DNA of 64,000 nucleotides from Candidatus Bathyarchaeota archaeon (GCA_963767735.1 CAVYES010000008.1:192001-256000); one strand, 5' to 3'; counted from the stretch's first letter, positions 9,779 to 35,731 are shown. The notes: generated from the letters alone by a model not told the origin. Translations and numbers: made by a program.

Positions 9779-12700
9779 TTACCTGAAAGTTGACAGGAGC
9801 GATTTTCTTTGCAGCTTATTAGTATTGGAGGAGGAAATCGGCTCTGATGCTGGAAGGGCCAGAGGCTGACTCTTCGAGCGCTTCCTCAGGACTGCCACGG
9901 CACCGATGGTGACGCCCGCTACGCCTATTCCGATTCCTGCGTAAGCGTAGTCGTATGCTCTGTTCACGCTGGCCTTGAGACTGCTGATTTGGTTTTGGAG
10001 AGCAGCTTGGGAAGCGTTTAGGCTTTTCCCGAGACTACTAAGCTGGTTTTGCTGAGATGTCTCAGATGAATTGAGGCTGTTTAGGCTTCCCCCCAAACTG
10101 TTGGTCTGGTTTTGCACAGAGGCTTGAGATGACTTTACGCTGTTCAGGCTACTTGTAAGACTATTGGTCTGACTTTGCAGAGACTGAATGGAGCTCTGGG
10201 AGTTTTGTAGGCTGGAAGTTTCTGAGTTTAATTGGTTCTGGAAGTACATTGTCGAGTTGGCGCTGGAGCTGACTCCGTCTGTTTGGGTGGCGACTATCAG
10301 TAGCGAGTAGCCGCCGTCGGCATAGTTGGCGGTGTTTATGGTGAAGCTGAGCGTTCCGTTGTTGCTGAAAGTTTGGGTTGGCTGGTTGTTGAGGTAAACG
10401 ACGATGGAGTTAATGCTGTTTCCTGAGACGGTTACGCTTCCGACCAGGTTACCGGTATATTTTCCTCCGTTGGTGGGCGAAGAAATCTGAATCGTAGGTG
10501 GAAGCGGGGAGATACTCTGATAGCTTGACGATGTCAACGAAAGGTTCGAGTTAACAAGAGCAATTGAGTTTAGATCAGTGTTGACTAAGTTAATGCTGCT
10601 GTTTGAAGCGACAATTTCCCCACCGTGCACGCCCTCAAGCGTTAGGTTGGCGCCGTTTGCAAATATAGTCCCGTTTACAAACGAGTCTGAGATGACGGTT
10701 GTGCCTGACGTGAACCAGTTTGATCCCATGAAGATATCGTTAGACAGGTTCGCCGATTTTGTCACGTTGACTCCGCTCAAAGCTAGCCCCGAACTCTGCT
10801 GGAACAAGGTGATTTGTTGGTTTGACAAGTACACGTAGGGCTGTATAGAGAAGGCTTGCTGGGCGGAGAGCGCGGCGGTTGTGGGGAAACCGTCGTAGGA
10901 GATGCCTGTCACGTAGACGTCGTAAGGACCAGCATAATTGAACGAGTTATCATTTATTGGTGATAGAACGCCGGCATTGTATGGTGAAGGCAGCAAGACA
11001 TTGGCGGTCCACCTGTTCAGCGTCGGACTATACAGCAATGGCGTCAACTCAAAACCCTGATACTCCGCATACATTATGGCTGTGTAGTCATTCTGCAGTT
11101 CCTGCGGATAAATAACCGCCGAGTATTCACCCTGCGTAACTTCTTGACCATTCGGATAATGAATATCAGCAGTTATCTGCGCCGTTTGCCCCATATACAA
11201 AGTTGACGGCGAAAGCGTTATCTCAGGAGTTATTGCGCCACTCGAAACAAGGATTTGACCGTAAAAGGCGCCATTGAGGGTGTACCCAAGAGTCACAGAG
11301 CCATAGTTTGCCTGAAGCAAAATCGTGTACAACCCAGGAGCCGCGTTAGACGGGACCGTGAGCAAGCCGACCATTTCTGAATTTTGCAAAAACAGGCTCG
11401 TGCTCGCAACCGTTTGACCCGACGGAGTTAATAGAAAGGCATTGACGTTTGAGCCGCTGGCCACATCGGAACCGATTGTTTCGCCAGTATCATACGATGT
11501 CTCTTTTGCAACGTTCAATGGGGCAATGGGAGAGACAGAGAGAGTAAGTGATTGTCCAGGGGCTATCGCGCCAGGTTCCACTGCCACCTCAGGGAGGACG
11601 ACGGCGGTTTGCAGGTAAATCCCATTGGTAAACGGTAGAAATCCATACGTGCCCCCCTGAAGCATCAAATCGATGGGGCCTGCTGGATATGGGGATGTTA
11701 GCGTCGCTTCAGTTACGTTTACTCCAGATACAAGGGTAGGTTGCAGCGTAACCGTGCCTTGAGAGCTGTAGAGATTATTGAGAATCGAATAGGAATTCAC
11801 CTGCATTGTGAGCGGTTGCAACGGGGCTGGATTGCCGTAGAGGTCTGTAGCGGTGACAACCACTTTTAAGCCTCCCGCTGTTGTCCATGGGTCTGTTGGA
11901 GTTGGACTAGTGAAGGTTGCGAGGTAACCAGCAAAAATTTCGGCGGAACCCGCCCCTGAAATTCCTGCTGATGTGCCGTTGACGTTGACGTATGCAACAC
12001 CGGACTGCTGCCCCATCACGAAAGAAGCACTAAAAGCCCCGCTTGCACTGTCGAAATTCATAGGAATGGATAAGGAAGCCCCATTAAGCGTCACAAGGCT
12101 GGCTGTAAAGCTTCCAGTAGTTATAGGCGTGAAGAAAGCTCCATTATAGATAGATGCTGTTACCTCAACAGTTTGACCCGAAGTGAATTCAAGTTGAGAT
12201 CCGCCTGTGGAGTTAGCGACTCCGACTAAAACGATTAGGCTGGACTGTGGATTTTGAGCGTTGTAGAGGGAAGCAATTTCGCCGATATTGGGACTACCCC
12301 ATCCTGTAGCAAGATTATAACCATAAGATGAAGTCCACGGGATAGTGTTGCCAAATGTGATAGGAGTGAAAGCTTTGGCGTAAGTAGCAGCGCTATTGCC
12401 CAGGCTATAAAGGAACGGATTGATGAGACCAAGCGGACCTCCCGCAGACTCAGCTACCAGTGTGAGTAGCCCCGAGAGAAGCTGAACAGATTCCGACGTG
12501 CCGCCCACAGCCATAACTGAACCCGAATCCACGATGAAAGTGGCTGGATTAACACCAGCCTGCAAAGAAAGATCTGGTTCCAATCTTCCGTTCGGATAAG
12601 AGGGAGGTGTCTGCTGACTTTGCTGATACCACGGCTTAGGCTCCACAAAACTTACCCCGCCTCCGCCTCCACCAGAATTAACAAAGTTCGGGACGTATCC

Positions 12701-29472: not shown

Positions 29473-29504
29473 TTCGAAAAGGCGATTGCAAAGCTAAGCA
29501 AGGG

Positions 29505-29600
29505 AAATCACAAAGACATCACAAGCCTATCACAATGCTGTGATATCAAGTGACTTGATGGTAAATCACCGTGATTTTAATGTGACAACATGACGTCACG
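29505..29600. promoter_or_regulatory. Dense array of (A/G)TCAC / GTGA(T/C) motifs
   Basis: About 10 half-sites in ~95 bp, including aaatcaccgtgattt and tgacgtca palindromes. Confidence 0.7.
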
Positions 29601-29980
29601 CTACCAATTTGAGTTTATTATTAGCCTTTTGGCATAAAAAAGTGAATTGATGAATGTTTCAACAGAAGCTGGCAATGATAATAAGTGAGTTTTAAAATAG
29701 CTTGTTAAAGCATGAATATCGGTTAGGAGCGACTTTGAAAAACTGCATTTTTGTTTAAAATTCACGGTAAAGCCAGCACCAGATATCGAATAATTTTGCC
29801 ATTTATCTGTTAATCGCACTTATTAATTGGCTAATTGAATAAAAACACTCACATTCACCGTATTTTGATGATTAACTCGTTTTTCGCGGCATTTATGACC
29901 GTCTGATAAAGTGGTTTTGCTTGGGCAAGACTTAAAAACTCGACTCAGTATACAAAAGCGTATCCATTTAGGCTACGGAG

Positions 29981-30472
29981 ATGACAGCGAGTTTGAAGCT
30001 AAAAGACGGCGTTCAAGCATGGCTAAACGGGGCATTAAACGACCCCATTGTAAAAATATTGGCTAAAAACAGCCAATTAACCAAAACACAACTTGAAACA
30101 CTGCTAATAGACATTTTAGCCGAGAACATCTCGGGCAAACAGTTAAAGTACGATGAAAAAGCCGATTTAAGACTAACTAAGGCTAAAATAAGCCGCGGCT
30201 CCTTTAACAGGACGTTAAAACAGTCTAAAGAAAACGTGATAAAATCAATCTACACGGTACTACTTTTAGGATATTTAGGAGTGTTTGACAGCACAACTCT
30301 TGACCCATATCTCGAAATAGCCAATAAACTGCACCAATATGTGGAGGCACACCAAGAGGCACCCGACAAGGAGGAGGAGCTAAAAGACCATCTAAAAGTC
30401 ATAGAAATCATTCGGGAAGAGCTTGAAACAAGCCTAAAACGGCTTTCTAGTCCATCAGAAGAGCACTTGTGA
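29981..30472 (+). CDS. Uncharacterised HTH-like protein near oriC
   Basis: SQLTKTQLETLL...ISRGSFNRTLKQSKENV helix-turn-helix-like segment. Confidence 0.7.
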   Translation: MTASLKLKDGVQAWLNGALNDPIVKILAKNSQLTKTQLETLLIDILAENISGKQLKYDEKADLRLTKAKISRGSFNRTLKQSKENVIKSIYTVLLLGYLGVFDSTTLDPYLEIANKLHQYVEAHQEAPDKEEELKDHLKVIEIIREELETSLKRLSSPSEEHL

Positions 30473-30766
30473 CGTCACAAATCACAGATAAAACCGAGTA
30501 TTTTTAAATATCAAAGGAAGTACGGAAAGTCAAAATATAAAGGTCATTTACAAGTCTTAATTTTAAAAATAACCTCAAATCACAGCTATACTATTGAGAG
30601 ATGAATGCGAAGATAGTAGAGGAAAATAGTTGTGACATGTGATATCATGACAAGCATGGCGATAACGTCACCGTAAACCTTAAAAAGTCCATGGATTACT
30701 GTGATGTGTGATGCAACTGATTAAATCACGTGCAAGTCACAGGGATGAAAAATCACGGTTGATTTT
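30467..30766. promoter_or_regulatory. Second TCAC/GTGA motif array
   Basis: Perfect 14-bp palindrome ttgtgacgtcacaa (30467-30480); tgtgacatgtgatatcatgaca; tgtgatgtgtgatg; aaatcacgtg; aaatcacggttgattt. Confidence 0.7.
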
Positions 30767-31480
30767 GTAACGATAATTTTGGGCGTTTTGCTTACCGTGA
30801 CCGTCGCAGCAACAGTCGAATATTATAGGCAAATACGTAAGGCACAAAAAGAGTATGAGAAAGCCAAAGGTGTTGTTGAAGACATAGTTCTTAGTTTTAA
30901 CCGAGATCTCAAGCGTGGAGCCGACAAACTAGATTTAATCGCGTTCAAAATAGAAGGAAACTTGGCCAAAGCGGACACCAGCCTAAAAAAAGTAGACACT
31001 TTAGAAAAAAGGCTATTGCCTATCGAAAATCAAATGGGCACTATTTCACAGACGGTTTCACAGAGTACCAATAAAATTCTCTCAGGATTAACAGATTTGG
31101 AATCTAAAATTAGAGATATTGAAGGGGCACAAGAGACGTTAAAATTGAAGATAACAGGCTTTGAAGAGCAAATTCAAAAGTTCAACGTTACTCCAGAAAT
31201 CAGCGAAACCGTCATCCCAATTAAACGTGACAAAGCAATGGCCTCATTAACAGACACAGAAATCACAGTGCTGGAAATGTTATCTTCAGAGGGACCCAAA
31301 ACAGCGCCAGAAATCAAAGACAGAGTTAAACTTAGCAGAGAACACACAGCAAGACTAATGAAAAAACTCTATGAAGAAGGATACTTAGAACGCGAAGTAG
31401 GCAAAATACCCTTCAGATACAGCATCAAAAAAGAGATGGAAAAGATACTGAAAAAGTCCGAGAGCAGCCCCTCGGCATAA
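30745..31480 (+). CDS. N-terminal TM + coiled-coil + C-terminal MarR-like wHTH protein
   Basis: Removing one A from the run at 30748-30752 gives MKITVDFVTIILGVLLTVTVAATVEYY (TM); heptad-rich middle; LTDTEITVLEML..EGPKTAPEIK...LSREHTARLMKKLYEEGYL. Confidence 0.8.
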
Positions 31481-31671
31481 ACCGCAAAGAAAGCGTCTCG
31501 TGACTGCCCAACCGACAAGAGTTATCCTGTCTCTACCATAGCGGTAAGTGTATGTTCCTTTTCAGGCATCCACGCCAACAGTTCTACTCAAATTGTACTT
31601 ACCTAAATTCGCGCTAAATACTTCTTAACCCAACAAAATTTATTTCAGTTTACTTCTCTTAGCAACTCAAG

Positions 31672-32100
31672 TCACTTTATTCTTTGTTTTATAGTTGCCT
31701 GAGAAATATTCGCTGTTTTGTACTTTAAGCTATTTGGCCCACCGGTCCTTAACAGCATACCTTTACTTGTCATCCTGGAAAGATAAGTGGAAACGGTACT
31801 AAGACTGACGGGTTCCTTAAGTTCCTGTTCATAAACAGACTGGATGTCCTTTGAAGAAAACCAAATCAAGGGAAAACTTTTCTGAATCACTGACTGAACT
31901 TTTTCGAAGCGTGAAAGTACACGATTTTGCAAGGACGCTCCTGTGCCCGTGGTTGGACCCTCGCCTGGTGCGCCGCCTAGCAATTCAACAAGATCTAAGA
32001 GTCGTAGAGCTTTGTCGCGGGTAACTTGACCCTCGAAAGCAATAGTATATCGATTTCCATCGCTATCGAACAGCTCAACACGCATTTTACGAGCTGGCAT
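31672..32100 (-). CDS. Uncharacterised wHTH protein divergent from oriC/cdc6
   Basis: WFSSKDIQSVYEQELKEPVSLSTVSTYLSRMTSKGML. Confidence 0.75.
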   Translation of the reverse strand: MPARKMRVELFDSDGNRYTIAFEGQVTRDKALRLLDLVELLGGAPGEGPTTGTGASLQNRVLSRFEKVQSVIQKSFPLIWFSSKDIQSVYEQELKEPVSLSTVSTYLSRMTSKGMLLRTGGPNSLKYKTANISQATIKQRIK

Positions 32101-32297
32101 TTAGTGTACACCACGAGGGTTGCTTCACAACTTTATACTTCACAGCTTATAGCTGTTATGGTGAATGATGAAATATAGAAAAAGCAGAATACAGCTTATT
32201 ATAATTAAATAGCCACAATTTTCATTCTTTTCAGCATAACGGACTTCACAGTAAATTAGATTAGCTGGATAATTAAGGTTCTTGCCTGGTTCCGCTT

Positions 32298-32886
32298 TTC
32301 CAGTAGAAGCGTAGGGGTGGCTTGTTAACAGTAAAGAGACAAGAAAAAAGTAATTTGAGGCAAAAGCAAACTGATTAAGCAGCAAATTTAATGATATTTC
32401 ACATGTATTCACAATTTTGTGAACCAAAAATGGGTGTGAGCTAAAGAAATTTATGGAAAGTTCATCCTAACTTGGAATTTAGAGAGATTATTGTCAATAA
32501 AACTTTGTTTCCGTTTCAATAAAGACAAATTACCATGGTAAAAATCATCTAACAGGCACCCCTGTGTTTCCTGTCGAAGTCTTCAAGCAAAAAAGAAGTA
32601 AAGAAATCTTAGGAAAAATATTTGCAGTAATCTTATCTAAAAATTTGGATAACAACTATTAATATATCAAAATATTATTAATACCTTAGAGTATATTACC
32701 TAATTATAGTAAATAGTTGTTCTTTACGTTAATTCACAAATTTTTTCCAGTAGAAACTTTGGGGTGTGCCTTGTTCTTAATTTGCTCAATTGTTATCAGA
32801 TGTTTTCATTGTTTTTTAGGATAGTTGTGCTTTAGAACCATTTTTTTGTACTGATTCCTTTATCTGTTCCAGACGAAATAAGGGTT
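32298..32886. other. Chromosomal replication origin (oriC) with ORB boxes and DUE
   Basis: ORBs: ttccagtagaagcgtaggggt 32298-32318 (+), ttcgacaggaaacacaggggtg 32557-32578 (-), ttccagtagaaactttggggtg 32745-32766 (+), gttccagacgaaataagggtt 32866-32886 (+); AT-rich stretch 32580-32744; directly upstream of cdc6. Confidence 0.9.
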
Positions 32887-32915: not shown

Positions 32916-34157
32916 ATGGGAAATTCAAACGTATTAGATGATGTGTTCGAGAGTTTCGTTAATGGGGTTCGGCTGTTTAAGGACAGAGAGGTTCTCAGAC
33001 ACGATTATCTTCCCGAAAAATTACCGCACAGAGAAGACCAAATAAAATTATTAGGACAAACAGTCGCGCCAGTTCTAAAGGATGCAAGATGTTCAAACAT
33101 TTTTATTTATGGAAAAACTGGGACCGGAAAAACAGCGGTTACAAAATACGTCTTAAGCCATCTAGAATCGAAAGCAAAGGAATATGGTGCGCCCGTAAAG
33201 TTTTGTTACATAAACTGCCGAATGACTGGTTCAGAATACCGAGTTTTCGCAAGCCTAAGCCAAAACCTTGGTATGTCAATCCCTTTTACAGGCTTATCTG
33301 TTGGTGAAGTGTTTGATAGGTTCAGAGCAGGTTTAGATTCTTCGAAAATAATTTTCATAATAATTCTCGATGAAATTGATGCCTTGATCAAGGACCGCGG
33401 AGACGCTTTCATGTATGAGTTAACAAGGATAAATGAAACTCTAAGTAAAAGCAAAGTTTCAATAATCGGCATATCAAATGACCTGCGCTTGAAGGAGTTT
33501 TTGGATCCTAGAGTTTTTAGTTCTCTTAGCGAAGAAGAACTAGTTTTCAGGCCATATGACGCAGCTGAACTTCGAAACATTCTTCTTGAACGCTCAAAAT
33601 TATCTTTCCAAGAAGGCGTTTTGTCTGATTCCGCATTAAGTATTTGCTCAGCTTTGGCTGCTGCAGAACATGGCGATGCAAGGCGAGCTTTGGATTTGTT
33701 GCGTGTTGCTGGAGAAGTTGCTGAGCGGCAAGGTGCCAAGTTGATTACAGAAGAGCATGTGCGTCAGGCAGAGAAGCATATTGAGCATAACCGAGTGGTT
33801 GAAGCGCTCAAAAATTTAACATTGCATTCAAAACTGGTGCTTCTTAGCGTTTATCACTTAAACAAACCAAGTGCTACCACAGGCGAAATATACGACGTTT
33901 ACAATGAACTGTGCGGCGAAATGGGTGCTGGTCTTCTGACACAACGCCGATTAGGCACGCTAATTAACGAGCTTGATTCCATGGGGCTTGTGAACGCGAA
34001 GGTTGTAAGCATGGGGCGGTATGGCAGAACCAAAAAAATCAGGCTTGAAATTTCAAGAAGCCTCATAAAGGATGTATTTGGCAACGATAACAGATTTAGT
34101 AGCCTGCTCAATTATTCCCTGCAATCCTCGCATAAAGGCTCAAATGGTACTAGCTAA
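32916..34157 (+). CDS. cdc6: Orc1/Cdc6 replication initiator
   Basis: LPHREDQI, GKTGTGKT, LDEID, HGDARRALDLLR, C-terminal wHTH GRYGRT. Confidence 0.97.
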   Translation: MGNSNVLDDVFESFVNGVRLFKDREVLRHDYLPEKLPHREDQIKLLGQTVAPVLKDARCSNIFIYGKTGTGKTAVTKYVLSHLESKAKEYGAPVKFCYINCRMTGSEYRVFASLSQNLGMSIPFTGLSVGEVFDRFRAGLDSSKIIFIIILDEIDALIKDRGDAFMYELTRINETLSKSKVSIIGISNDLRLKEFLDPRVFSSLSEEELVFRPYDAAELRNILLERSKLSFQEGVLSDSALSICSALAAAEHGDARRALDLLRVAGEVAERQGAKLITEEHVRQAEKHIEHNRVVEALKNLTLHSKLVLLSVYHLNKPSATTGEIYDVYNELCGEMGAGLLTQRRLGTLINELDSMGLVNAKVVSMGRYGRTKKIRLEISRSLIKDVFGNDNRFSSLLNYSLQSSHKGSNGTS

Positions 34158-34171
34158 ACCCTCTGAGAAAA

Positions 34172-35731
34172 TTAGTTAAATGAGAGAACAGTAGTCTCCA
34201 GCGTTTGCAAGTTTACCACTGGAACTTTTCCCGGCGTAGGAACCAACCCTAATTTCTCCATGTAATCGGTCTGTTCTTGCCAGCCGCCTGAATTCACAAC
34301 CAACACTCCGCGGTAATTGCAGTAACCTAAAACGTGAATATGCCCCGCATGAAAGATGTCTGGAACTCTATCGATGACCAGGTAATCACGGTTTTCTGGA
34401 GACAACATGGTTTTTCCACCATAAACTGGCGCTAAGTGGCGACTTTGCATAAGTAGCCTCATTGCTTTTTCTGGGTGATCATGATCCATTCCAGGCAGAA
34501 CAGCGATAATATCGTCTAAACTGCGGCCATGATACATTAAAACTTCTACTCCGTGTAGACTTAACAGGCATGGGCTTCCAACAGAGTGAATGTTCTTTTT
34601 ACCTTGCATTCCCGTCAAATAGCCTTCTGGTATGGCAGGTTGGGGTAAAGCTTTGCGTGACGCATCATGGTTGCCTGGGGAAATAATTATTTCAATGTAT
34701 TCAGGGATTTTTTCCAGATATTTCGCGGCAAAATTGTATTGTTTATGGACGTCTCGTATGGATAGTTCTTTTGCTTGGTTGGGGTAAACTCCAACTCCGT
34801 CAACAATGTCGCCTGCGATTAGTACGTATTTTACTCTGCCTGCTATTTCCTTCATTTGCTCGTTTCCATATTTCCCCTTAAGCCAAAGTATGAACCGTTT
34901 GAATGCTTCTTTTTGGAATTTGGTGCTGCCAATGTGAAGGTCTGATGTTAAGACAGCGTAAACTGGTTCTTGTGCTCTTTGTTGGGTTTTTCTGCCTATT
35001 TCAGGGAAAATTATGTCCTCAGCTAAGAAAAGGTTAGTTCTTGTTTTTATCACTGCCAAACAAACTACTTGATCAGGCAAAAGAAGAAGCGCTTTTTTCC
35101 TGACTTCTTCTGGTGCTTTTTGCGGCACTAAGACAGTTGTGCTTCCCAGCAAGTCTTCAACTGATAGTATCATTTGGTTTTTTGATTCTCTTTTTTCTGT
35201 TATCATGCAGATTATTTTGAGTTTTGTTTTAGCAGGTGATTTGAGTGCTTCAAGTATTGGTGTTGCAGCTTTAACGTCCATTCTTTGTCTAAGCAAGCGT
35301 TCAATTCGTTTAAACCTGTCTTGGAAATATTCCAGATATTCTTCAAGGGTGCCGTTGGAGCTAAGTTTGCCTGTTGAATCTTCCAGAATGTTAATGTTTG
35401 CTTTTATGTCCTTGGCGTAGGGATAAAAAGTGCTTTCAACTGTACTTATTTGCTGCGGTGTTGGTGGCTCTACGGCGTTTTGTTGTTGCTGAGGCTGTGT
35501 TTCTATGAGGGGTGCTGTTAGCTGTTGCACTAAGGTTTCTAAGAATACTTTGTCTATGAAGAACGGTTTTTCTTGCAAGTCTGCTAGCTTTTGAAGTGCC
35601 AAGTTTATAATGCCAACTGGGTCGGTTGTGTCTGAGTTTTGGCTTAAGAATTCAAAGGCTTCGCTGTTTAGTTGGTATCCCGCTGCGATTGTTGCTTCGA
35701 TTGCTTTTTGCAGTTTTTCTTTTTCGCTCAT
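34172..35731 (-). CDS. polB: DNA polymerase D small subunit DP1
   Basis: OB fold; SDLHIGS, AGDIVDG, PGNHD, YHG, HLAP, GHIH phosphoesterase motifs. Confidence 0.96.
   Translation of the reverse strand: MSEKEKLQKAIEATIAAGYQLNSEAFEFLSQNSDTTDPVGIINLALQKLADLQEKPFFIDKVFLETLVQQLTAPLIETQPQQQQNAVEPPTPQQISTVESTFYPYAKDIKANINILEDSTGKLSSNGTLEEYLEYFQDRFKRIERLLRQRMDVKAATPILEALKSPAKTKLKIICMITEKRESKNQMILSVEDLLGSTTVLVPQKAPEEVRKKALLLLPDQVVCLAVIKTRTNLFLAEDIIFPEIGRKTQQRAQEPVYAVLTSDLHIGSTKFQKEAFKRFILWLKGKYGNEQMKEIAGRVKYVLIAGDIVDGVGVYPNQAKELSIRDVHKQYNFAAKYLEKIPEYIEIIISPGNHDASRKALPQPAIPEGYLTGMQGKKNIHSVGSPCLLSLHGVEVLMYHGRSLDDIIAVLPGMDHDHPEKAMRLLMQSRHLAPVYGGKTMLSPENRDYLVIDRVPDIFHAGHIHVLGYCNYRGVLVVNSGGWQEQTDYMEKLGLVPTPGKVPVVNLQTLETTVLSFN

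Follow-up and report, generated by a model that had tools for sequence, protein, structure and literature searches.

Can an archaeon hold the DNA beside its replication origin at the membrane by means of a protein that is itself fixed there? The question is raised by three uncharacterised genes, here called A, B, and C, which lie next to a putative origin (oriC) and an Orc1/Cdc6 gene (cdc6) in a 64,000-nt stretch of DNA from a Candidatus Bathyarchaeota archaeon. This stretch (the window) is C8:192001-256000 of a 3.04-Mb genome, and coordinates without a contig or locus label are counted from its start. The original prediction took the three genes, together with the TCAC/GTGA motif arrays around them, for a module that binds centromere-like repeats independently of ParA and ties them to the membrane through a transmembrane helix of its own. 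We find that A, B, and C are the core of an ancient gene cluster beside the putative replication origin. That B would form an autoregulated, membrane-attached nucleoprotein patch on the arrays is a proposal whose chances we rate as even; the evidence for it and the readings that compete with it are set out below.

We determined the density of TCAC and GTGA along the window and then along the whole genome. Nine copies fall within 29501-29600 (array 1), compared with a mean of 0.61 per 100 bp for the window (standard deviation, 0.82), and the next-densest 100-bp segments of the 64 kb are 30657-30756 (6 copies) and 15150 (5 copies). Across the 3.04 Mb, segments with 9 copies are exclusive to array 1. 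A density of at least 6 copies per 100 bp is reached in eight regions, two of which are the arrays at the A-B locus, so that the motif is denser here than anywhere else in the genome. The other six regions were considered as further targets and rejected as unrelated, being, for instance, AAAAGTGARGAAA repeats or coding sequence. The prediction of a dense motif near 29505-29600 and again to the right of A is thus borne out, with 9 copies in array 1 and 13 sites in array 2 (30469-30800), as is that of a perfect palindrome at 30467, which is the 14-bp TTGTGACGTCACAA (30467-30480).

The oriented array sites share the consensus a-a-(a/g)-TCAC-a and amount to about 22 RTCACA half-sites over 1.3 kb, at a distance of 1.3-2.6 kb from oriC. 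Array 1 stands about 30 bp past the stop codon of the preceding nitrilase gene and about 330 bp upstream of the TATA-like box of A, and ends on the right in an imperfect palindrome, aTGAcgTCAC. In 13 genus-level sequences the positions of its sites are kept and the spacers vary, and in other families of the order the array is weak or missing. In array 2, the palindrome TTGTGACGTCACAA overlaps the stop codon of A, whose TGA lies inside the first GTGA site, and GTGAnnnGTGA doublets flank the TATA-like box of B on both sides, one about 35-50 bp upstream and the second, GTGATGTGTGAT (30701-30712), at the expected start of the B transcript. A TCAC site at 30668 abuts the same box on its upstream side, and more sites are found in the 5' leader (in variable number), over the start codon of B, and at 30797. 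The palindrome, both doublets, and the TATA-like box of B are invariant or nearly so in the 13 genus-level sequences. Such composite sites are scarce: TGTGAnnTCACA occurs 2 times and GTGATnnGTGAT 5 times in the genome, and they form no other cluster. The other TGTGAnnTCACA palindrome of the genome, at C4:333889 (TGTGAGGTCACA), has AT-rich surroundings that resemble a promoter and is a possible second target of the B type.

Reading the protein encoded by B required its start codon to be settled. The original prediction placed the start at the ATG at 30745, which turned out to be out of frame (ATG AAA AAT CAC GGT TGA, a stop after five codons), while the predicted end at 31480 agrees with the gene call. 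The frame of B opens at 30749, and its first canonical start, a TTG at 30779, would give a protein of 233 amino acids. A frameshift or assembly error at the A-run (30748-30752) was ruled out, since contigs from two DNA runs carry no indel in it: the run X1 contig (record 4, 30529-30902) has 0 differences, and the run X2 contig (record 12, 29561-31444, from another study and about 3% divergent) has indels at 29720 and 29907 alone. Moreover, the ATG at 30745, which sits in a purine-rich Shine-Dalgarno-like stretch (GGGAT, GGAGG), is not conserved. The most likely start of B is an ACG at 30755, inside the TCAC site aaaTCACGgtt, because its position is conserved, relatives carry ATG there, and two of them have no canonical alternative. 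Of 14 genus-level sequences, 13 carry the ACG exactly 22 residues ahead of a conserved YY(R/K) motif, and the fourteenth (L032) carries ATG there; in orthologues from other families of the order the codon is likewise ATG; and L027 and L030 lack any ATG, GTG, or TTG in the stretch that runs from the upstream stop to the YYR motif.

Read in this way, B opens with a membrane helix of about 18-20 residues (approximately nt 30764-30817), which begins 2-3 residues past the start codon in every lineage that has it and is followed directly by basic residues (YYRQIRK). Next comes a coiled coil of about 120 residues (approximately nt 30827-31189; residues 25-150), whose heptad contrast of 0.645 stands against 0.277 ± 0.044 and was reached by 0 of 300 shuffles, and then a winged helix (approximately nt 31247-31426; residues 157-216 of the 233-amino-acid form). 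Since the basic residues follow the membrane helix, the predicted topology places both the coiled coil and the winged helix in the cytoplasm. Compared with archaeal regulators of the MarR/TrmB/Lrs14 type, B exceeds the Pfam cut-offs for MarR (30.8 bits; cut-off, 24.6), TrmB (28.1; 25.6), and HTH_27 (27.3; 22.2) and stays far under the NCBIfam cut-offs for Lrs14 (27.3 bits versus 90) and Sta1 (24.6 versus 80). In its recognition helix, (K/L)(T/S)REHTARLMKKL, the residues R, E, H, R, K, and L are invariant in 18 sequences, and this invariance across classes fits the unchanged motif.

We then asked how far the membrane helix and the arrays accompany B in its relatives, using 55 B loci from Bathyarchaeia, Nitrosopumilaceae, and other classes; the loci are a sample, and the taxon names given here come from a few source labels. 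A membrane helix, called where a 19-residue window has a Kyte-Doolittle mean of at least 1.6, is retained in 49 of the 55 orthologues (own order, 21/21; other Bathyarchaeia orders, 12/14; Nitrosopumilaceae, 11/11; other classes, 5/9). The four clear helix-less orthologues (L094 to L097) are also not beside cdc6, which suggests, from very few independent events, that the anchor and the origin position are linked.

The arrays turned out to be conserved across the phylum and to track B. Between A and B, the number of sites ranges from 9 to 18 in the 20 order-level loci. Within 331 bp around the B start, at least 6 sites are present in 46 of 55 loci (median, 9, versus 2.4 expected; Poisson p < 0.01 in 42), and within 331 bp downstream of A, at least 6 are present in 44 of 51 loci with B (median, 11) versus 1 of 6 without it (median, 1). 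In five of the six B-less genomes the B profile gives weak coiled-coil matches and no winged helix. At loci that have no A, the arrays stand upstream of B, with 13 (L094), 10 (L096), and 6 (L095) sites. The TGA stop of A is inside the first GTGA site in most loci, those of Nitrosopumilaceae included; in the latter family the GTG/ATG start of B is in turn inside GTGAT, and the sites run into the coding sequence of A. Because the arrays follow B, lie upstream of it when A is absent, and are matched by an invariant recognition helix, B is the best candidate for the protein that would bind them.

The putative origin itself was recognised from its sequence context. The spacer between C and cdc6 is 815 bp long and contains two repeats resembling origin recognition boxes (ORBs), with AT-rich DNA between them, and the adjacent Orc1/Cdc6 protein has both a lid domain (Cdc6_lid, 88.2 bits) and a C-terminal domain (Cdc6_C, 87.6 bits; Pfam). 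All the marks of an Orc1/Cdc6-adjacent origin, namely, the lid and C-terminal domains, the repeated ORB-like elements, and the AT-rich DNA, are thus found here, and the spacer is taken as the putative oriC. Two more Orc1/Cdc6 paralogues are encoded far off in the genome, at C3:79710-80825 (30% identity) and C6:598439-599188 (29%).

The linkage of the three genes to this origin proved to be old. B is present in 35 of 41 related genomes. At the order level, A is followed by B in 20 of 20 loci, C is present in 19, and the order A-B-C-oriC-cdc6-polD is kept in 18 of 20, the gaps being contig ends. In the other orders of the class, cdc6 is within 9 kb of A in 16 of 20 loci, C is beside cdc6 and B beside C in most, and nadE and the nitrilase gene are often gone. 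Across the phylum, the B profile matches 196 of 301 genomes, from which 20 loci were retrieved. In family f39 (source names, Nitrosopumilus), 10 of 11 loci have A, B, and C, the last convergent with B, together with an origin-like spacer, cdc6, and polD, the eleventh locus being cut by the record end, and four loci of f51, f57 (two), and f61 are also beside cdc6. Synteny with cdc6 is therefore seen at all three depths, in 18/20 order-level, 16/20 class-level, and 10/11 Nitrosopumilaceae loci. Outside these groups, the Methanosuratincola/Methanomethylicaceae and Culexarchaeum loci have B and C but lack a cdc6 within 9 kb, B stands alone at one Thermoprotei locus, and A and B occur together at one f47 locus. 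The named homologues of the cluster proteins are annotated as hypothetical or as generic helix-turn-helix (HTH) proteins.

At L021:3479-6014, and also in L023 and L034 to L038, a HerA-like ATPase (DUF87) and a 339-amino-acid partner of no known family are encoded in the interval from C to B, following C and sharing its strand. Members of the order outside the genus have the pair, as does one genome inside it; this genome and most of the genus lack it. A defence-system reading of it was rejected, the matches to HerA, mad8, and CedD being weak and far under the cut-offs.

C has a small N-terminal beta-beta-alpha domain, a disordered linker, and a C-terminal winged helix (predicted local distance difference test score [pLDDT] of the model, 69.7). 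Its match to Penicillinase_R (20.4 bits) is under the cut-off of 22.6, and its fold matches are generic winged helices (the Fur DNA-binding domain, MecI/BlaI, RosR, and AspA; E, 2.6e-3 to 2e-2). The predicted promoter of C reads TGTGAAG-TATAAAG-T-TGTGAAG on the minus strand, that is, a TATA box between two TTCACA sites, and TTCACA-class sites are found in oriC at 32125, 32140, 32161 (minus strand), 32246, 32399, 32409, and 32419 (minus strand), with a palindrome, TTCACAATTTTGTGAA, at 32408-32423 that is unique in the genome. C is divergent from cdc6 in 47 of 48 loci, with oriC between them. C may be an origin-binding protein. TTCACA-class sites were also noted at 32733, and the counterpart spacer of Nitrosopumilaceae is rich in GTTAACA.

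The product of A gives an all-helical model (pLDDT, 85.6). We found no match to it in Pfam, NCBIfam, or PADLOC, and no counterpart in the PDB either by fold (best Foldseek E, 1.9) or by profile. The gene has 3,096 homologues, which among the 120 matches listed are unnamed or hypothetical and without Pfam domains, and it is single-copy in 164 of 201 Bathyarchaeia genomes, including 111 of the 121 high-quality ones. A conserved helix, SRG(A/S)FNRTLxQ (here SRGSFNRTLKQ), resembles a recognition helix, possibly that of a sigma-70 region-4-like HTH. A language-model search gave a weak lead in the same direction (feature score, 0.79, to a cluster with Sigma70_r4 in 14% of its members), and there was no significant profile or solved-fold match to sigma-70 region-4 or LuxR-like HTH domains. 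Upstream of A, a TATA-like CTTAAAAAC (29931-29939) is followed by GTATACAAAAGCGTATCC (29948-29965), an ATAC-N6-GTAT inverted repeat. Both elements are nearly invariant within the genus (alignment of 13 sequences), and the 18-mer pattern of GTATACAAAAGCGTATCC has 2 copies in the genome. ATAC-N6-GTAT is also found upstream of A at other loci (L042, L045, L052, L053, L056, L082, and L084), in other orders, in the absence of B, and, as TATACAgatTTGTATA, in Nitrosopumilaceae, and is probably A's own operator.

The original prediction saw a single motif throughout the locus, and this part of it had to be replaced by three classes. Class 1, RTCACA/GTGAnnTCAC, extends from the A stop across the B promoter and start codon and, in this genus, also forms array 1; class 2, ATAC-N6-GTAT, lies just downstream of the TATA-like box of A; and class 3, TTCACA, surrounds the TATA box of C and recurs among the ORBs of oriC. 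The origin-side copies (32125-32440) have the form T-TCAC-A, those of the arrays (A/G)TCAC(A). In 46 divergent C-cdc6 spacers from three taxonomic depths, TTCAC was observed 276 times versus 77.4 expected (3.6-fold) and GTT(A/C)AC 118 times versus 24.1, while RTCAC was observed 49 times versus 105.8. Because TTCAC is enriched and RTCAC depleted in these spacers, the TCAC copies on the origin side belong to another class than the arrays.

The features of the locus are collected in Table 1, in which the gene calls for A and C agree with the coordinates originally predicted.

Table 1. Features of the A-B-C locus and its surroundings, in window coordinates
Feature	Position	Strand	Basis or remark
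nadE	27728-28624		Gene call; left part of locus
Nitrilase (CN-hydrolase) gene	28621-29472		Gene call and domain search; between nadE and array 1
Array 1	29505-29600		9 TCAC/GTGA half-sites, densest 100-bp window of genome
Two conserved non-coding blocks, tttgaaaaactgcatttttgtttaaaatt and ttttgccatttatctgttaa	29745-29825		Genus alignment
Predicted promoter region of A	29931-29965	+	TATA-like box and ATAC-N6-GTAT, genus alignment
Gene A, 163 amino acids	29981-30472	+	Gene call
Array 2	30467-30800		Palindrome and 13 TCAC/GTGA sites
TATA-like box of B, ccTTAAAAAg	30678-30687	+	Promoter predicted from conserved sequence
Gene B, 241 amino acids read from ACG	30755-31480	+	Comparative start codon evidence
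Gene C, 142 amino acids	31672-32100	-	Gene call
Predicted promoter of C	32123-32146	-	TATA box between two TTCACA sites
TTCACA-class sites within oriC	32125-32440		Motif scan
ORB-like repeats TTTTCCAGTAGAAnnnnnGGGGTG, 24 nt each	32296-32319 and 32743-32766	+	Repeat search
Orc1/Cdc6 gene	32916-34157	+	Domain search
PolD small subunit gene	34172-35731	-	Convergent with Orc1/Cdc6 gene

A scan of the spacers of the locus found no Rfam family and no tRNA, and the two conserved blocks between array 1 and the A promoter contain no conserved open reading frame; these blocks may be a second promoter or binding region. Contigs from RNA libraries, which cannot establish transcription, transcript ends, or levels, touch all three genes: for A, part of the gene is covered (by a relative that has 21 differences); for B, the 5' portion from 30738 on, with the ACG included; and for C, the 5' portion (contig X20, 31884-32104, ending 4 nt upstream of the ATG, a weak hint). 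Unrelated to the locus are two copies of a AAAAGTGA(A/G)GAAA repeat block, at C5:73398-73526 and C7:18114-18272, with flanks that are alike (gggttgcttttttg/a).

As for independence from ParA, which is supported in part, no ParA-type gene is found among the neighbours at the locus (nadE, nitrilase, cdc6, and polD), in line with the original prediction, and the locus likewise lacks motor genes of the actin-like or tubulin-like type. Elsewhere in the genome there are five PF13614 ParA-like matches, the nearest at C8:114996-116225, about 105 kb off.

Taken together, the locus would encode three sequence-specific DNA-binding proteins, each with its own class of sites. B would be a single-pass membrane protein with about 3 residues outside, a helix in the membrane, a cytoplasmic coiled coil, and a MarR-type winged helix, and would bind (A/G)TCAC(A) half-sites as singles, as GTGAnnTCAC palindromes, and as GTGAnnnGTGA doublets. 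Through the sites over its own TATA box, leader, and start codon, B would limit its own synthesis. Because B cannot leave the membrane, the DNA it binds would be held there, so that the array DNA, 1.3-2.6 kb from oriC, would become part of a multi-copy protein-DNA patch at the membrane. C probably binds the TTCACA sites at its own TATA box and among the ORBs, and A probably binds ATAC-N6-GTAT at its own promoter. We infer from the sequences the pairing of each protein with its sites, the autoregulation, the attachment of DNA to the membrane, and any benefit for the positioning, segregation, or replication control of the origin.

The reading that competes most closely treats A, B, and C as transcription factors that regulate themselves and play no structural part, each repressing its own promoter and perhaps those of its neighbours or of cdc6. 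Their adjacency to the origin would then be kept by a dosage or timing signal of early replication or by control of cdc6 by C, and the helix of B would serve to limit how much B reaches DNA. We consider this account possible, and on balance doubtful. Several observations speak for it and at the same time weigh against a membrane patch. The position of the arrays is fully compatible with plain autorepression: the best-conserved array covers the TATA box, the presumed transcript start, and the start codon of B, and because it covers B's own promoter and start, a role as local autoregulator stays viable. Each of the three genes has its own conserved putative operator at the TATA box or transcript start, and no single site is common to all three, which limits the tether as originally conceived. 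The four B orthologues of Methanomethylicia, Culexarchaeia, and Thermoprotei have arrays, no membrane helix, and no cdc6 within 9 kb; binding of the arrays would therefore need neither the anchor nor the origin. B is also dispensable in several Bathyarchaeia families, five Bathyarchaeia genomes keeping A, C, and cdc6 with neither B nor the arrays. Dispersed sites, either of a regulon or of a centromere and such as RacA, RicO, or ParB systems have near the origin, were not found in this genome or in five Nitrosopumilaceae genomes, the sites being confined to a single locus. In the five Nitrosopumilaceae genomes, all complete, the doublet pattern occurs 17-27 times versus 4-12 times for the reversed control, and a doublet cluster (three matches in about 150 bp) is confined to the A-B junction.

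The assignment of the arrays to B meets objections of its own. It rests on co-occurrence among related, non-independent genomes. In one genome (G116, locus L042) the profile detects no B, yet the palindrome and 8 sites still follow A. In six loci with genes inserted between A and B (L051 and L057 to L061) the arrays stay at the 3' end of A and the DNA upstream of B is bare, and in L090, L092, and L097 few sites lie upstream of B. A gene for an XRE-HTH/CBS protein directly follows the array in two lineages of Bathyarchaeia, at L042 (7977-8660) and L051 (approximately 9860-10450). Finally, helical phasing of the sites is weak in array 1 (R, 0.6; p of about 0.04, uncorrected for the periods tried), and none was found in array 2.

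There are, on the other side, features that go beyond what plain regulation calls for: the number and spread of the sites, their presence in coding sequence and over stop and start codons, and the retention of the membrane helix in two classes. The 13-22 half-sites over 0.3-1.3 kb exceed the needs of one promoter, array 1 is about 330 bp from any recognisable promoter, and the Nitrosopumilaceae sites reach into the coding sequence of A. Five genes in four transcription units that stay collinear with oriC from Bathyarchaeia to Nitrosopumilaceae would be unusual for unrelated regulators. Above all, a DNA-bound protein with a conserved membrane helix keeps DNA at the membrane regardless of purpose, and because an anchored protein on the arrays would do so whatever it is for, we rank the membrane patch first and plain regulators second. 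The centromere-or-operator caveat that stands between these two readings is also raised, for the sites of SegB, in a review of archaeal segregation (PMC5120986). The origin tether originally proposed is thus upheld in its motif density, origin linkage, membrane helix, and conserved arrays, and weakened by the three site classes, by the helix-less and B-less exceptions, and by the viability of simple autoregulation.

The remaining explanations fare less well. E. coli sequesters new origins through SeqA and also has the datA locus, and a device for replication control can be imagined along such lines, in which B on the arrays and C on the TTCACA sites of oriC jointly sequester the newly made origin at the membrane or titrate a factor after initiation. 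C-type sites are indeed enriched among the ORBs, C is the most constant neighbour of cdc6, and arrays so close to oriC would be duplicated at once after initiation. We nevertheless hold such a device to be improbable, as nothing ties B to C or Cdc6, no methylation-type motif is involved, and some lineages with C and cdc6 are without B. A further step down in probability is the idea that B is a transcription factor stored at the membrane and freed by regulated proteolysis to act both on the arrays and elsewhere: such release would suit a protein that lacks an extracellular domain and has its membrane helix and DNA-binding domain set apart by a long linker, and a few sites outside the locus exist, for example, TGTGAGGTCACA, whereas no sign of a regulon past the locus was seen and soluble orthologues have the same arrays. 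The remnant of a partition cassette from an integrated plasmid or virus is hardly credible, since, for all the resemblance of iteron-like arrays beside small DNA-binding genes to plasmid centromeres, the cluster is single-copy and vertically inherited, keeps its gene order over the order, the class, and a second class, has no integrase, tRNA, or motor gene in the locus, and yields nothing in PADLOC beyond weak matches of B to winged helices (Csa3/CARF), A and C being unmatched; a mobile element is likewise contradicted by synteny.

Returning to the membrane patch, a wider and rather speculative form of it, to which we give a low probability, is that A, B, and C constitute an origin-organising system of Thermoproteota older than the split between Bathyarchaeia and Nitrososphaeria, in which C on TTCACA/GTTAACA sites between the ORBs and B on RTCACA arrays 1-3 kb away would hold or sequester the origin at the envelope with no adjacent ParA. 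If this is true, neither an origin-membrane tether nor a chromosomal centromere-like array would have been described in archaea before, and the system would be approachable in cultured Nitrosopumilus. How archaeal origins are positioned, segregated, and relicensed where no known partition machine is present is listed among the outstanding questions in the segregation review (PMC5120986), and the locus makes available both defined cis sites and a set of three small proteins beside oriC and cdc6, one of them predicted to be fixed in the membrane. Even the minimal reading predicts the DNA sites of three uncharacterised, widely conserved families of archaeal DNA-binding proteins, as well as C-type sites in oriC, and the locus adds comparative evidence that an archaeal gene may start with ACG. 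A literature search found no paper on A, B, or C and no description of the order membrane helix-coiled coil-winged helix.

How, then, does B compare with systems already known? ToxR and CadC are winged-helix DNA binders fixed by one membrane helix, as B is predicted to be; their DNA-binding domain is N-terminal, however, and they have a periplasmic sensor domain, whereas B has about 3 residues outside. In ParR/parC and TubR/tubC, short-repeat arrays over the promoter of the binder's operon serve as both centromere and operator, and TubR is a winged-helix protein. The array at B likewise overlaps the predicted promoter of B's own gene. These systems differ in being plasmid-borne, in having an adjacent filament-forming motor, of which none is found here, and in having no membrane anchor. 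RacA of Bacillus subtilis reportedly unites a coiled coil and a DNA-binding domain, recognises repeated origin-proximal sites, and anchors the origin, and in these respects B would resemble it. RacA is said to reach the membrane through a partner protein and to have dispersed sites and a DNA-binding domain of another type, whereas B would use its own helix, sites at a single locus, and a MarR/TrmB domain.

Among archaeal proteins, SegB and AspA are site-specific binders with sites just upstream of their own genes and an ambiguous role as centromere or operator factors, and AspA of pNOB8, a winged-helix protein, spreads from its binding site, as the review describes (PMC5120986). B shares with them the position of the sites and the same ambiguity, and AspA is among the weak fold matches of C. 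According to the same source, they work with an adjacent ParA-type ATPase, have no membrane helix, and, in the case of SegB, have two sites rather than arrays; no adjacent ParA/SegA ATPase of the SegAB/ParABS kind is present at the locus. The closest working precedent for B is the bacterial RicO, which joins a coiled coil to a DNA-binding domain and a helix that binds the membrane, and which recognises origin-proximal sites, as described in its report (bioRxiv 10.64898/2026.03.06.710092). B is not counted as a member of the RicO, SegB, or AspA families, and RicO is compared here by its published description. In RicO, as far as described, the domain order is the reverse and the membrane element is a C-terminal amphipathic helix, while that of B is an N-terminal transmembrane helix, and the nine ricS sites are spread over about 700 kb, while the roughly 22 half-sites of B stand at one locus within 2.6 kb of oriC, so that B would have the DNA-binding and membrane parts of a RacA/RicO-type tether and not its dispersed sites. 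The case for RicO draws on genetics, ChIP-seq (sequencing of immunoprecipitated chromatin), and imaging, that for B on sequence, and the likeness is one of description: a DNA-binding domain, a coiled coil, and a membrane element in one polypeptide, sites near oriC, and a proposed bridge between DNA and membrane.

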